This document shows, one piece after another, positions 17,018-54,285 of a DNA stretch of 64,000 bases. Position 1 is the stretch's first letter. Every line of letters starts with the position of its first letter. Source of the stretch: Candidatus Peribacteria bacterium. Lineage in GTDB: Bacteria > Patescibacteriota > Gracilibacteria > Peribacterales > Peribacteraceae. The translations under genes and the position numbers were made by a program. The stretch lies in NCBI GenBank assembly GCA_041691135.1, contig JBEPVF010000001.1, forward strand, positions 128,001-192,000. Reading direction: 5' to 3'. The notes under the pieces were generated by a model that saw only the letters and a program-made list of their open reading frames with translations, was not told the origin of the DNA and made no database searches.

Positions 17018-17122
17018 GCCACGGAAAATCGTTGCGCAATCGCGTGGCACGCAAAGCGGAAATGACAGAAAGTGCGTCGAAGGTTATGGCTGTGCCACGC
17101 GGCGCCGCAGGCGCTTTGCGTG
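17018..17122. repeat. tRNA-3' inverted-repeat trailer (copy 1)
   Basis: 11-bp IR CACGCAAAGCG (17048-17058) / CGCTTTGCGTG (17112-17122). The internal TCGAA-N4-ATGGCTGTGCCACG motif is shared with the tRNA-Gln trailer. Confidence 0.7.
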
Positions 17123-17197
17123 GTCGGGGCGGCGGGACTCGAACTCGCGACCTCCTGGTCCCAAACCAGGCGCTCTAGCCAACTGAGCTACGCCCCG
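17121..17197 (-). tRNA. tRNA-Pro(TGG)
   Basis: CGGGGCGTAGCTCAGTTGGCTAGAGCG-CCTGG-TT-TGG-GA-CCAGG...GTTCGAGTC...CCCCGACCA. Confidence 0.96.
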
Positions 17198-17281
17198 GTG
17201 AAGCGGACAGATAGTACAGCAATTTTTGCGTTGCACCACTGCCTTTCTCTACCGCCAAGATGCATCGTCTGCGTTTTCCAG

Positions 17282-19648
17282 TTATTGACTGGATTGCTCT
17301 AGAGCTGTCGCATGGCTCAATCCGCTCGAATTGATATGAATAACAGGCGATGAGTAGAAAAGATGGCTGATGCCAGAGACTTTCGCTTGGACGTCCTGCG
17401 TGGCTGTGACTTGCGCACGGCTAATACCCGATAATTCCACGTCCGCACTGGTCGTCGTGAATGCACGTGCATCGGTGTTCGATATTCCGCTTCCGTGTAA
17501 CGTGAGCATCTGTCCGGATCCGGACAGTATTATTCGCGACACGCCTGCGTTGTTGATCGTCAGCGCAGTGACGCTCGTCGATGCATCGACACGCATGGCA
17601 CCGTTGATATCCAGACTGGTAAGGGTCGGCAGTGTGACGATGTATTCAACCGGATCCCAACGGCAGAACGGACAGCGGAACACACGTGGCTTATCGTGAT
17701 GTAAATGAAGAATGCCATCGCCATCCACGGAGCTGAGAACTTGTGGAAGACTGGTCGATGTTCCCCGAGCTAGTACGGAATAGCCCGATCCCTGACGCAC
17801 GGTCAGAATGTCATTTCCATTGGCGGCGATTCCCACAAAATTCTGCGCGTCGATACTTTTTTCTTCCGAGTAGACAGGTGTGTTGGTGGGGAAGAGCGGA
17901 ACGATCGGTGCGAAGAGCGAGAAGGCGAATCCGAACACGATCGGCCACATCACCAGCGCAGCCAGAATACGAAACACCGGATACGGACGACCGATGGTCG
18001 CAAGCGACTTGCCGGCGAAAATGAGGAACGCACAGGCGAGGAATGCCGCGGCAAACAGAATCGCTTCGAAGAGGATGGCGTACTGAGGCGTGGCAAATTG
18101 CGGCGAGAGGAACGGGATGCTTAGAAACATATTTGTTTTGTAGAGCATCAGTGCCGCATAGACGATCGCGGCGATTCCGATCCAAGCGGCAATGACAACC
18201 AATCTGCCAATCAAGCGCAGCAAACCGAAAACCAGTCCCTTCACACCGCGCTCCACTTTTTTACCAAATGAATGCTTGGCGTACGTTATGGTTGGATCAT
18301 ACGCATATGCAGCGACGTAGTGTCTATCGGCATCTAGGTCAGGTTCACTGTCGGAAGCATCGGCATCCGCTTTCTTTTCGGATTTGGATGCATGCTGCTC
18401 GCGCGCGCCGCGTTGGTGTGTGTTGCTCGCACCACTCACGGTCACTTTCATTTCCGGCGAACCGTAATACAGCAGGTTACTTGCTCCAGTGACGAAACCC
18501 TCAATTTTTTGCGATATCGACACTTCTGCCCGGCATGCGCCGTTCACTTCCACGTAGCCGGTCTTCACATGATAATTCGATGCGCTGGCCTTCGAGGCAC
18601 CGGATATGTGCAGATCGATTGTTTCGCCGGTGCCCGTCAGATTGAGCATTGATGCGCCTTCGATTTCCGACTTCAGGTGCTTACTGTTTGTGCGACAGCG
18701 GATGGTGGATGCGCCGGTCGCACGCAGTGTGAGTTCGTGGCTCTTGAATCCTTCGATTTCGGCACGGCTGGCGCCCGAAATGATGACGCTTGTCAGCTCC
18801 GGCATCACAATATCGATCGACAACTGATGGAAACCGTGGAACATCGACCGCAACCAGTTCACATGCGATCGCTCGACGTGCAGTTCGCCATTGTCGACAT
18901 AAATACGGAGAGCGCTCAGCTGCCGATTCGGCGCGCGGGCCGTTACTTTCGTAGACTTGCCTTCGCGGATGCGCAGTTGTACGGCGCTGCCGCCGTATAC
19001 CGATGTAAACCCGTGCACGTCAAAATTTTTCGTCGCTTGTTCCAAGTTCTCTTGAATCGCCGAGAGCGTCACTGCCTCACCTTGCATTTCCATCCGCTGC
19101 GTTGGCGTTTTAGCTTCGGGCATGGCAATCCACAAAATGATGTACAGAAGGATGCCGAATCCATGCGTCACAATCGTAAAGACAAAGAAGATGATGCGAA
19201 CGATGACCGGATCGATTTCGAAGTACGCGGCGATTCCCGCGCATACACCGGCCAGTACGCGATTCTGGGTGTCGCGAAAGAATCGCTTGGGGCCGCGCTG
19301 CTGCGAAGAAGATGAACGATAATGCTCTGGTTCTTCATTTTTACTTTCCGACTGCTCCGATCTCGTCGCATGATCAACACTTTCGAACTCGGCAAAATCT
19401 TCAACCGTTCCCATCGACTCGGTCAGCTTCTTTAAATCTTTCAAAGTTATTACTTGCTTGCTCCGTGTCAGTGTTTCGGAAAACTGTTCTGCGATCCGAC
19501 TCTCGATGTCGCTCACGATTTCATCGCGGTCGGGAAACGTCGCAAAGTGATCATGGATGGATCGCAGGTACTCATCTAATACGGCATACGCGTCATCGTC
19601 GACGTGGAACAGGATGCCGCTGATCTGGATACTGATGGTCTTTTTCAT
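17282..19648 (-). CDS. PspC-domain membrane protein with two DUF2807 (GIN-type beta-solenoid) domains
   Basis: MKKTISIQISG...DIESRIAE N-domain; PspC RDTQNRVLAGVCAGIA...YIILWIAMPEA; two blocks of SGAS/SGIS repeats; start overlaps the padR stop (ATGA). Confidence 0.85.
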   Translation of the reverse strand: MKKTISIQISGILFHVDDDAYAVLDEYLRSIHDHFATFPDRDEIVSDIESRIAEQFSETLTRSKQVITLKDLKKLTESMGTVEDFAEFESVDHATRSEQSESKNEEPEHYRSSSSQQRGPKRFFRDTQNRVLAGVCAGIAAYFEIDPVIVRIIFFVFTIVTHGFGILLYIILWIAMPEAKTPTQRMEMQGEAVTLSAIQENLEQATKNFDVHGFTSVYGGSAVQLRIREGKSTKVTARAPNRQLSALRIYVDNGELHVERSHVNWLRSMFHGFHQLSIDIVMPELTSVIISGASRAEIEGFKSHELTLRATGASTIRCRTNSKHLKSEIEGASMLNLTGTGETIDLHISGASKASASNYHVKTGYVEVNGACRAEVSISQKIEGFVTGASNLLYYGSPEMKVTVSGASNTHQRGAREQHASKSEKKADADASDSEPDLDADRHYVAAYAYDPTITYAKHSFGKKVERGVKGLVFGLLRLIGRLVVIAAWIGIAAIVYAALMLYKTNMFLSIPFLSPQFATPQYAILFEAILFAAAFLACAFLIFAGKSLATIGRPYPVFRILAALVMWPIVFGFAFSLFAPIVPLFPTNTPVYSEEKSIDAQNFVGIAANGNDILTVRQGSGYSVLARGTSTSLPQVLSSVDGDGILHLHHDKPRVFRCPFCRWDPVEYIVTLPTLTSLDINGAMRVDASTSVTALTINNAGVSRIILSGSGQMLTLHGSGISNTDARAFTTTSADVELSGISRAQVTATQDVQAKVSGISHLFYSSPVIHINSSGLSHATALEQSSQ

Positions 19649-19992
19649 GACCGCAAGAGGGAAGTGATGGAAGAGGAGAGGGATTTCCAACTGGCAATGA
19701 GTTTCTTGAGTGAATCCCGACCGTCGCCGGTGAGGCTGTACAGCTTGCGTGGCGGGCCGCTCTTCGATTCCTCCCATTCGTATTCAAGCATTTCTTCTCG
19801 TTTAAGACGGCTGAGCAGGGGATAAATGGTGCCTTCGACGACGACCATATCGATAGAGGCTAATTTCTTCAGAATGTCCGGCGCATAGATGCGAGGGGAC
19901 CGGTCGATAATCAGCAAGATGCAGAATTCCAGAATGCCTTTGCGCATCTGTGACTGGTTTTTCTCGAAGTTTTGCTGCAAATCTGATGTCAT
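19645..19992 (-). CDS. PadR-family transcriptional regulator
   Basis: QMRKGILEFCIL, EGTIYPLLSRL, WEESKSGPPRKLYSLT. Confidence 0.93.
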   Translation of the reverse strand: MTSDLQQNFEKNQSQMRKGILEFCILLIIDRSPRIYAPDILKKLASIDMVVVEGTIYPLLSRLKREEMLEYEWEESKSGPPRKLYSLTGDGRDSLKKLIASWKSLSSSITSLLRS

Positions 19993-20000
19993 GTGAGGAG

Positions 20001-20035
20001 AGTGTAGTACACAGTACTTGGTATTGCAAGGTACT
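20001..20035 (-). promoter_or_regulatory. padR promoter with probable operator
   Basis: Minus strand TTGCAA-N17-TACACT, overlapped by the imperfect IR AGTACTTG-N6-CAAGGTACT. Confidence 0.6.
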
Positions 20036-53337: not shown

Positions 53338-53402
53338 ACGACTGAAGGGAAGAAAATGGGGATTTAGGATAAATGGCTGGATCAAAGCGACAAGAAAGGG
53401 AT

Positions 53403-53432
53403 TAGATATAGCTCAATATTTGCATAAAGTCA
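53403..53432 (-). promoter_or_regulatory. promoter of giant surface protein
   Basis: Minus strand TTGACT-N17-TATATC. Confidence 0.5.
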
Positions 53433-53671
53433 AATATATTTTCTATTATACATTTCACTCTGAGGGGATTCACAATTTTCATCTTAAACCGAGAATTAAG
53501 TGAAACTACAATGAAAAGTGCCTCCTCTGACGAAAGCTGCTGTAAAATCTTACAAATCGAGCAATATTTGTGCTCAATTTAAGAGCTCCCTCCCGGCCAA
53601 AGCCGAGAGGGACACGTGATGAATGCATCGCATGTACGAGCGGTTCTCACGAATTTTACGGCTGATTCGCA

Positions 53672-54049
53672 TCAGATGCGCAGTTTTCGCCGAAGGACCA
53701 GAGCGGCTTCCTTTTGCGCCTCATCCCCAAGTATAGAGACCACCTGGGCGAAGTGTCGGGCCCAGCAACACTCCAATTGCCGCATCACAGAGCGGTTTTG
53801 ATCCGAGGGATCGTGGATGAAGACGACGACCTTCATGGGAACGATGCCTCGACTAATCCCTTCCTGACAGCATTCAACCCATTCGGAGTTGAGGGGGTCG
53901 CAGAGCAGGGCATCCGGCAGCTGCTCATCCATAACAGCGCGAGCCGTCGCCAGATCGGTGGCCCACAAGAACTCCGGTCTGAAGCCGAGTTCCCCGAAGC
54001 CATCTAGCCTCGGCGGAGTCTTGTAATCTCTAAACCAAAGAACGCGCAT
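53672..54049 (-). CDS. divergent receiver-like protein
   Basis: MRVLWFRD...PDALLCD...KVVVF pattern; AGGAGG 8 nt upstream of the ATG; hairpin at about 53586-53611 downstream. Confidence 0.55.
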   Translation of the reverse strand: MRVLWFRDYKTPPRLDGFGELGFRPEFLWATDLATARAVMDEQLPDALLCDPLNSEWVECCQEGISRGIVPMKVVVFIHDPSDQNRSVMRQLECCWARHFAQVVSILGDEAQKEAALVLRRKLRI

Positions 54050-54149
54050 AACCAAAGCCTCCTAGACGAACTGGTGGTGCGATCACTTTTCGGAGAATAG
54101 ATCACAATCAAAAGCAGTCAATTTAATGGTCAAGAACAGCAACTTCTTA

Positions 54150-54285
54150 CGAAGGCATGGCCGCGTAAAGCTTGCTTCGCTCGCAACGCGACTCACGTAA
54201 AATCGCTTCTCGCTTGGAAGTTATTGGTTTTCGAATCTGATGGCTGCGCCACGTGATCACAAGCCACTGCGACCGATTTTACGTG
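54150..54285. repeat. tRNA-3' inverted-repeat trailer (copy 2)
   Basis: 12-bp IR CACGTAAAATCG (54194-54205) / CGATTTTACGTG (54274-54285); internal TCGAA-N4-ATGGCTGCGCCACG. Confidence 0.7.

Follow-up and report, generated by a model that had tools for sequence, protein, structure and literature searches.

Both of the trailers that follow the tRNA-Pro and tRNA-Gln genes in a 64,000-nucleotide (nt) stretch of a “Candidatus Peribacteria” genome (the window: assembly GCA_041691135.1, contig JBEPVF010000001.1, positions 128,001 to 192,000) are built from a short palindromic unit whose first helix uses the tRNA's own CCA. We put at roughly 55% the probability that these trailers belong to a mobile family of nested palindromic DNA elements in the candidate phyla radiation (CPR)/Patescibacteria that is specific for the 3' ends of tRNA and transfer-messenger RNA (tmRNA) genes and that exists as solo copies and as cassettes with a GIY-YIG nuclease gene. 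The element has a defined anatomy, is specific for tRNA/tmRNA ends, keeps a fixed orientation, varies in occupancy, and is linked to a multicopy, often broken GIY-YIG family; the weight of this evidence favors a selfish mobile palindromic element.

The genome that holds the window (G000; 1.74 Mb in 35 contigs, 52.9% G+C, 92% complete) has 50 tRNAs plus tmRNA. ARAGORN called four tRNA genes in the window, three of which carry the element, and the features that concern it are as follows.

17121-17197, minus strand: tRNA-Pro(TGG) (ARAGORN; Rfam tRNA model, 67.3 bits)
17087-17123, minus strand: core unit of tRNA-Pro, with helix P1 CCACGC/GCGTGG, internal loop AAA/C, helix P2 GCGCC/GGCGC with loop TGC, and tail CACAGCCA (from sequence, folding, and the consensus)
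17048-17086, minus strand: spacer (17086-17059) and distal perfect partner CGCTTTGCGTG (17058-17048), which pairs with 17122-17112
17019-17047, minus strand: reverse-oriented unit of the Pro array (CCACG...CGTGG, with an inner TTGCGCAA palindrome)
16596-16865, minus strand: gene for an 89-amino-acid GIY-YIG nuclease (UPF0213/Slx1-like; PF01541, E = 1.3e-14), ∼150 nt downstream of the Pro array and on the tRNA-Pro strand
32426-32502, plus strand: tRNA-Met(CAT) (ARAGORN)
32500-32536, plus strand: third copy, behind tRNA-Met(CAT), with variant P1 CCATAT/ACATGG, loop AAA/C, P2 GCCGC/GTGGC, and tail CGCGGCCA
54284-54358, minus strand: tRNA-Gln(TTG) (ARAGORN and Rfam)
54241-54286, minus strand: core unit of tRNA-Gln, with P1 CCACGT/ACGTGG, loop AAA/C, a weak P2 ATCG/TGAT around an inner hairpin, and tail CGCAGCCA
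54194-54240, minus strand: Gln spacer, then the distal perfect partner CGATTTTACGTG (54205-54194), whose pairing with 54285-54274 makes a 12-bp long-range helix
54159-54192, minus strand: reverse-oriented variant unit of the Gln locus, with outer pairs GTCGCG/CGCGGC instead of CCACGT/ACGTGG

The encoded CCA of tRNA-Pro (17123-17121) supplies the first three bases of P1, and that of tRNA-Gln (54286-54284) opens P1 in the same way. The original prediction, made from the window alone, had described two trailers, each framed by a perfect inverted repeat, and both repeats are exact when read on the tRNA strand (17122-17112/17058-17048, 11 bp, for Pro; 54285-54274/54205-54194, 12 bp, for Gln) and begin inside the tRNA end, at C75-A76 of the encoded CCA. 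The long repeat is nevertheless an outer, alternative helix, the primary conserved unit being the short hairpin plus tail (17123-17087 and 54286-54241), and the count of two copies has to be raised, with tRNA-Met carrying the third. A 23-nt motif reported as common to both trailers, CGTGGCRCAGCCAT-N4-TTCGA, has exactly two matches in the window (17077-17099 and 54231-54253, both on the minus strand) with up to three mismatches allowed; shuffling gave an expectation of 0.05, and none of 100 shuffles reached two matches. The 11/12 match that had been noticed at 17020-17031 is also real and represents the plus-strand reading of the reverse-oriented unit at 17047-17019. The Pro copy is a cassette, having the GIY-YIG gene behind it, and the Gln and Met copies are solo. 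The Gln-type layout of core, spacer, and distal partner recurs behind a tRNA-Met of another genome (locus L006 of G020) and in Peribacteria loci. Contigs from one DNA sequencing run stop at 17064 and 17148, inside the Pro element, with no joints.

To obtain the family consensus, we combined folding with our own anchored parsing of 66 copies, all distinct and tRNA linked, drawn from many genomes; the covariation figures come from that parsing. P1 reads CCACGT/ACGTGG in 63/66 copies, CCACGA/TCGTGG in two, and CCACGC/GCGTGG in the Pro copy of the window, and its sixth pair therefore covaries; ACATGG variants like that of the tRNA-Met copy also occur at L029 and L039. The internal loop sets 5'-AAA against 3'-C in 46/66 copies (AA against A in 6/66), and P2 has at least four consecutive pairs in 57/66 (median, 7), with 38 distinct stem sequences. 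The apex is variable, may contain further hairpins, and extends up to ∼140 nt; the smallest copy (L038) measures 29 nt. Each unit ends in the 3' tail CRCNGCC(A). Based on this anatomy, the tRNA signatures that had been read into the shared motif dissolve: the supposed D-arm sequence, TGGCRCAGCC, is explained by the 3' arm of P1 plus the conserved tail, which together give those letters, and TTCGA, taken for a T-loop signature, follows the tail in some close relatives only and is not a family-wide feature.

In the long inverted repeat, the distal half competes with the 3' arm of P1 for the same 5' arm, the two pairings being mutually exclusive, and it covaries with that 5' arm in other copies. 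Among the 47 of 50 tRNAs of G000 that encode CCA, 11 have a 9-mer beginning at C74 or C75 whose reverse complement lies within 180 nt (shuffle control: mean, 1.2; maximum, 6), and in seven trailers of this genome the long-range helices span 70 to 78 nt. Additional units are placed in the apex or after the first unit and may point either way, reverse units being common in arrays. Array-internal units retain CGT...ACG and change their outer three pairs jointly (CCC/GGG, GGA/TCC, or GTC/GAC), as in second units with CCCCGT/ACGGGG or GGACGT/ACGTCC; only the first unit must be CCA/TGG, because its CCA is the tRNA's.

Linkage to tRNA ends extends through the whole genome, as anticipated from the two copies first seen. 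In G000, inspection of the 170 nt behind every tRNA showed eight tRNAs (Leu-taa, Ser-gct, Pro-tgg, Gln-ttg, Arg-tcg, Arg-cct, Ser-gga, and Thr-cgt) whose CCA runs directly into CG[TC]AAA and hairpins, with variants behind two more (Met-cat, in the window, and Thr-tgt), for a total of 10/50 tRNAs. All family copies in this genome point forward with respect to the tRNA. There are five instances of the strict tail CGTGGC[AG]CAGCCA, each 22 to 84 nt behind a tRNA CCA, and the other sites of CACG[TC]AAA[AG] look like chance matches in coding DNA.

Across 401 genomes of the phylum, a junction pattern composed of the tRNA T-loop, N15, and CCACGTAAA gave 58 matches in 26 genomes from many families, with up to 10 per genome (10 in G373, 6 each in G120 and G143, and 4 in G418). 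The reversed-pattern control matched in 2 genomes, and by our own estimate (401 genomes, ∼45 tRNAs each, one in 4^6) ∼4 matches are expected by chance; those at L023, L030, and L033, which are without the tail, are likely to be such. A tail-only pattern gave 29 matches in five genomes versus 4 for its reversed control, and 23 of the 29 (in G013, G143, G373, and G120) lie 12 to 171 nt behind a same-strand tRNA whose CCA begins the element. The exceptions are one match in the RNase P RNA gene of G013, one at 272 nt behind a tRNA, and four for which no tRNA was found. ARAGORN placed a tmRNA directly before the element at three loci, and several further loci end like a tmRNA without being called by it; at two tmRNA loci, the sequence before the element is ...TCCA, whose status as a mature CCA end is uncertain.

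In operons, the next tRNA begins 2 to 13 nt past the tail, so the element lies within the primary transcript and cannot be a terminator. An intrinsic terminator is thus ruled out, there being also no T run after the tail. At the 3' ends of two protein genes (L007 in G019:C20 and L013 in G013:C53), ∼18 to 45 nt of the gene end are present on both sides of the element in diverged form, and the insertion appears to have brought or duplicated a replacement gene end.

Occupancy varies between relatives. The same-genus genome G003 has no element behind tRNA-Pro(TGG), although that tRNA is 98% identical, nor behind tRNA-Gln(TTG), and G001 and G004 have other trailer types at these two tRNAs. At a tRNA-Val(GAC) preceded by the same gene in six genera, the element is complete in one genome, short in another, and absent from the remaining four. 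Since genomes of the same genus are ∼70% identical with little synteny, and the relatives of G373 number one per genus, the comparison of filled and empty sites proposed at the outset could be carried to presence and absence at orthologous tRNAs but not to exact insertion boundaries. Near-identical copies stand behind different tRNAs of one genome in three cases (Met and Leu-taa in G003, Phe and Arg-tct in G373, and Leu-taa and Leu-gag in G143). In G013, one copy equals another plus a 29-nt unit in the apex, flanked by duplicated CAGCG, and tandem copies occur. Behind a tRNA-Ser(CGA) of the same genome (L079, G013:C54), the tail and the next ∼16 nt are repeated four times, one behind the other, at 30-nt intervals.

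The gene behind the Pro array belongs to the family that is the consistent neighbor of the element. Its open reading frame (ORF) of 89 amino acids carries the PF01541 domain at residues 1 to 67, and Y5, Y16, G18, R26, H30, and E62 are invariant in 10 sequences of the family; relatives measure 83 to 112 amino acids. A profile of these 10 proteins matched, among solved structures, 1zg2 (UPF0213 BH0048, E = 4.1e-13) and 1ywl (UPF0213, E = 1.4e-8), followed by chains of SLX1, an endonuclease that is structure specific. The same profile retrieved 536 relatives from species-representative genomes, and we examined the loci of the best 80 of the 536. In 59/80, a same-strand tRNA ends 68 to 378 nt upstream and the element opens the spacer (with CCACGTAAA or the variants CCACGA and CCACGC); all 59 begin CCACG-N-A, and by our own estimate chance would produce such tRNA-gene adjacency at <1 locus in 80. 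The core motif lies within 300 nt upstream of the GIY-YIG gene in 73/80 loci versus downstream in 5/80, three of the latter being the element of the next tRNA. The proposal of a small, nonautonomous element aimed at tRNA 3' ends fits the tRNA-linked strict copies, the variable occupancy, the near-identical copies at different tRNAs, and the nesting; the partner gene, which follows in 59/80 loci and behind the Pro copy, goes beyond it.

The GIY-YIG family is present in 255/401 genomes of the phylum (E ≤ 1e-12) in up to 13 copies, many of them with in-frame stops. It occurs in 23 of the 26 junction-positive genomes, and two of the three exceptions (G117 and G134) are probable chance junctions. 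In G000 itself there are six small GIY-YIG ORFs, four of them directly behind same-strand tRNAs. Five Verrucomicrobia loci (L149, L155, L158, L164, and L166) are without a tRNA and have a single CACGTAAA...CACGTG hairpin upstream. The hairpin at the Verrucomicrobia loci is of the CACGTAAAAGCTTCGCTCACGTG type and stands 20 to 40 nt before the ORF, and the DNA farther upstream reads as the end of an integrase-type gene.

Based on these features, we propose that the GIY-YIG protein would act as a structure-specific nuclease on hairpin or cruciform DNA, making its cut either at the element or where the tRNA gene ends. Repair or copying from an occupied site, aided by the CCA/TGG overlap, would then spread the element and set it right behind the CCA. 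Copies in operons are inevitably cotranscribed within the pre-tRNA, from which processing must remove them.

Several observations weigh against a selfish mobile element. The 89-amino-acid protein has no DNA-binding domain, so the specificity for tRNA ends is not explained by the protein alone. Three of the four tRNA-linked GIY-YIG genes of G000 stand behind other trailer types or none, which ties the gene more to tRNA ends than to this repeat family. In the genomes compared, no transposition event, target-site duplication, or cleavage site was definable, and the sole repeat at both ends of the element is CCA (the tail ends in GCCA). A few copies occupy non-RNA sites, and the RNase P RNA gene of G013 (L061, contig C5, minus strand, 1064-1593; RF00010, 122.9 bits, 530 nt against a 367-position model) holds a copy ∼60 to 100 nt from its 5' end, right after the conserved GAGGAACGUCCGGGCA stretch. 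GU pairs are somewhat more numerous in the sense than in the antisense strand (118 versus 84; Wilcoxon P = 0.03, with copies that are not independent). Finally, the conserved basal helix, the fixed orientation, the restriction of insertions to the apex, and the covariation of P2 would be equally expected of a functional RNA.

These last points bear on the main alternative, possible though in our judgment unlikely, in which the trailers are cis-acting modules of pre-tRNA that spread by duplication, the CCA-pairing hairpin marking or shielding the 3' end for maturation or separating the tRNAs of an operon; the neighboring GIY-YIG protein may be the enzyme that recognizes it or may be unrelated. 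The position of the element in transcribed inter-tRNA spacers suits this idea, as do the retention of the basal helix, the AAA/C loop (46/66), and the tail across families of the phylum, the P2 covariation with apical insertions, the fixed orientation to the tRNA (59/59 GIY-YIG loci and all G000 copies), and the slight lean of GU pairs to the sense strand. So does the failure to find the usual 3'-end enzymes: in G000 there is no match to RNase Z and none to RNB (RNase II/R), the RNase PH domain appears only in a 776-amino-acid PNPase-like frame, and among the 401 genomes of the phylum, none has an RNase Z above the curated cutoff and 26 have weaker matches. Other observations speak against it. 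Only a minority of the tRNAs in any genome carry the element (10/50 in G000), the exact junction is missing from 375/401 genomes, and the orthologous tRNAs of close relatives do without it. Both orientations of the unit occur inside arrays, which indicates an identity at the DNA level, and the GIY-YIG genes are multicopy and often broken, behaving like a parasite rather than like a housekeeping enzyme. In stability, the sense and antisense folds hardly differ (34 versus 33), which speaks against a module that acts as RNA; being nearly symmetric, this measure does not decide between the RNA and DNA levels.

We find it improbable that a dedicated CPR system for tRNA/tmRNA 3'-end maturation is made up of the hairpin and the UPF0213 GIY-YIG protein, with a selfish element recruited as a processing signal and the GIY-YIG protein acting on RNA. 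This idea draws on the failure to find RNase Z in the 401 genomes and RNase II/R or a stand-alone RNase PH in G000. Under such a scheme, the CCA-pairing helix would present the junction between CCA and the following C, and the small nuclease, or another reader of the AAA/C loop and tail, would cut there.

More doubtful still is a repetitive extragenic palindromic (REP) sequence, or a paired REPIN, moved by an HUH single-strand transposase (a REP-associated tyrosine transposase [RAYT] or an IS200/IS605-like enzyme) that inserts 3' of a short ...CCA target. G000 does have four Y1_Tnp (PF01797) matches, and the elements are hairpins with a defined strand whose inverted pairs make long, REPIN-like hairpins; in addition, CGTC-tagged REPs are described in PMC3733652 as terminating in a short CCA-like tail and lacking any known transposase. 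REPs are nevertheless defined there by a conserved tetranucleotide, GTAG (or CGTC), left unpaired at one hairpin end (PMC3733652), and none of the 66 copies carries it. Around the three RAYT-like genes of G000 stand hairpins of another kind (GAGCGCC-N7-GGCGCGG type), without any CCACGT unit, which makes a RAYT-driven REP unlikely; a 3-nt target cannot account for the restriction to tRNA/tmRNA ends; and the consistent neighbor is a GIY-YIG gene, not a Y1 transposase. The RAYT-like Y1 genes (C11:30505-30801, C5:61831-62046, and C1:268373-268576) each have their own inverted hairpin on both sides and constitute a separate REP-like system.

The second suggestion of the original prediction, a tRNA-mimicking decoy or tRNA-like structure, is highly implausible, whether RNase P or a CCA-recognizing enzyme were to process it: the long-range helices of 70 to 78 nt in seven G000 trailers approximate the size of a tRNA and the GCCA at the end of the tail resembles a discriminator base plus CCA, but ARAGORN and the Rfam tRNA model see no tRNA-like fold in the trailers, even at E values up to 10, the minimal copy is 29 nt, the D-arm motif is accounted for by the P1 arm and tail, and TTCGA is not conserved. 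In line with the earlier expectation that no described family would match, Rfam at the gathering threshold found in the whole window the same four tRNAs as ARAGORN and nothing else, and at E values up to 10, both trailers had only chance-level matches of ≤12.1 bits; known ribozymes, terminator-like leaders, and tRNA-like families were rejected on this result. Copying by a tRNA-primed reverse transcriptase was also considered, given one RVT_1 gene in G000, and is speculation. On contig C8, where the two genes take up C8:10387-11010 and C8:12924-13289, ∼2 kb separates that gene (RVT_1, 80.2 bits) from an IS200-like Y1 transposase gene, and no link between this pair and the element was found.

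The fourth tRNA gene of the window has a trailer of another kind.

7717-7793, minus strand: tRNA-Arg(TCT) (ARAGORN)

Right after its CCA (7640-7716, minus strand), a second trailer family begins, reading TTCGACTC...CTCGCTCATG..., which is also found behind tRNA-Leu-cag, tRNA-Met-cat (on contig C3), and tRNA-Ser-cga of G000 and behind a tRNA-Ser of the distant genome G373 (L037); the arms of this family suggest a pseudoknot-like pairing. Further trailer families (RCCTTCGC..., TTCGGCTT..., and YCCGGCTTCGC...) follow other tRNAs, and their 3' arms likewise pair with CA or CCA. Between tRNA-Arg(GCG) and tRNA-Ala(GGC) of G000 (C2:17652-17773), an exact copy of the ∼20 nt that open the tRNA-Ala gene is followed by unrelated sequence, in what looks like a partial tRNA duplication. 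Also in the window, ∼900 nt from the tRNA-Gln locus, a 2,882-amino-acid ORF (44737-53385, minus strand) with many similar repeats of ∼100 amino acids and a C-terminal hydrophobic stretch probably encodes a giant surface protein.

Neither the element nor a connection of UPF0213/GIY-YIG genes with tRNAs turned up in full-text searches of the published literature. If our favored interpretation of a mobile element is correct, CPR/Patescibacteria host a previously undescribed class of site-specific selfish DNA that docks on the universal CCA end and moves together with a minimal GIY-YIG nuclease, a counterpart to the HUH-based REP/RAYT systems. The widespread and uncharacterized UPF0213 proteins would thereby gain a genomic partner and a testable substrate, and many assembly breaks at tRNA genes of CPR genomes would be explained. 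The element also raises the question of how the CCA is freed from a hairpin that pairs with it in genomes where the usual 3'-end RNases were not found.

We do not assign the element to the REP/RAYT systems, the CGTC REPs, the miniature inverted-repeat transposable elements (MITEs), or the GIY-YIG homing genes, because it has no GTAG or CGTC tag, no flanking RAYT gene, no clear target duplication, and, in its partner protein, no DNA-binding domain. It resembles REPs and REPINs in that both are short hairpins, commonly arranged as inverted pairs forming larger hairpins and located in transcribed intergenic regions, whose copy number differs between relatives and which are tied to a small nuclease-type gene with its own repeats on either side. 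The CGTC REPs, as described in PMC3733652, also have a short CCA-like tail. Unlike REPs, the element has few copies per genome (∼5 to 10), is almost confined to the position behind a tRNA/tmRNA CCA, and makes that CCA part of its hairpin, and its partner is a GIY-YIG protein of the UPF0213/Slx1-like type instead of an HUH Y1 transposase.

The Seg proteins of phage T4 are free-standing GIY-YIG homing endonucleases, and SegB is encoded in the T4 tRNA gene cluster. The partner gene of the element shares with them a catalytic domain with an intact motif, a sporadic and multicopy occurrence, frequent pseudogenes, and a fixed site beside conserved genes. It differs in being no more than the ∼90-amino-acid catalytic domain, with no counterpart of the DNA-binding domain found in Seg proteins and I-TevI, in coming with a structured palindromic repeat that also occurs solo, and in residing in cellular CPR genomes, not phages. 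Among MITEs and other small palindromic mobile sequences, such as the Correia, RPE, and ERIC sequences, RPEs are tolerated within transcripts and also within structural RNA genes. The perfect terminal inverted repeats of 11 to 12 bp around 50 to 70 nt, the noncoding nature of the element, and its tolerance in transcripts and in the RNase P RNA of G013 recall this group; set against it are the lack of a recognizable target-site duplication beyond CCA, the failure to find a related insertion sequence with a DDE transposase, the strict preference for tRNA/tmRNA ends, and the fixed orientation. The 3' side of tRNA and tmRNA genes is a safe landing site for other mobile DNA as well, including integrase-borne islands at tRNA/tmRNA 3' ends and type V-K CRISPR-associated transposons downstream of tRNAs. 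Those elements span kilobases, carry an integrase or transposase, and create a partial duplication of the tRNA 3' end, whereas the element described here comprises 30 to 180 nt (∼0.5 kb once the GIY-YIG gene is counted) and has the CCA as its exact starting point.

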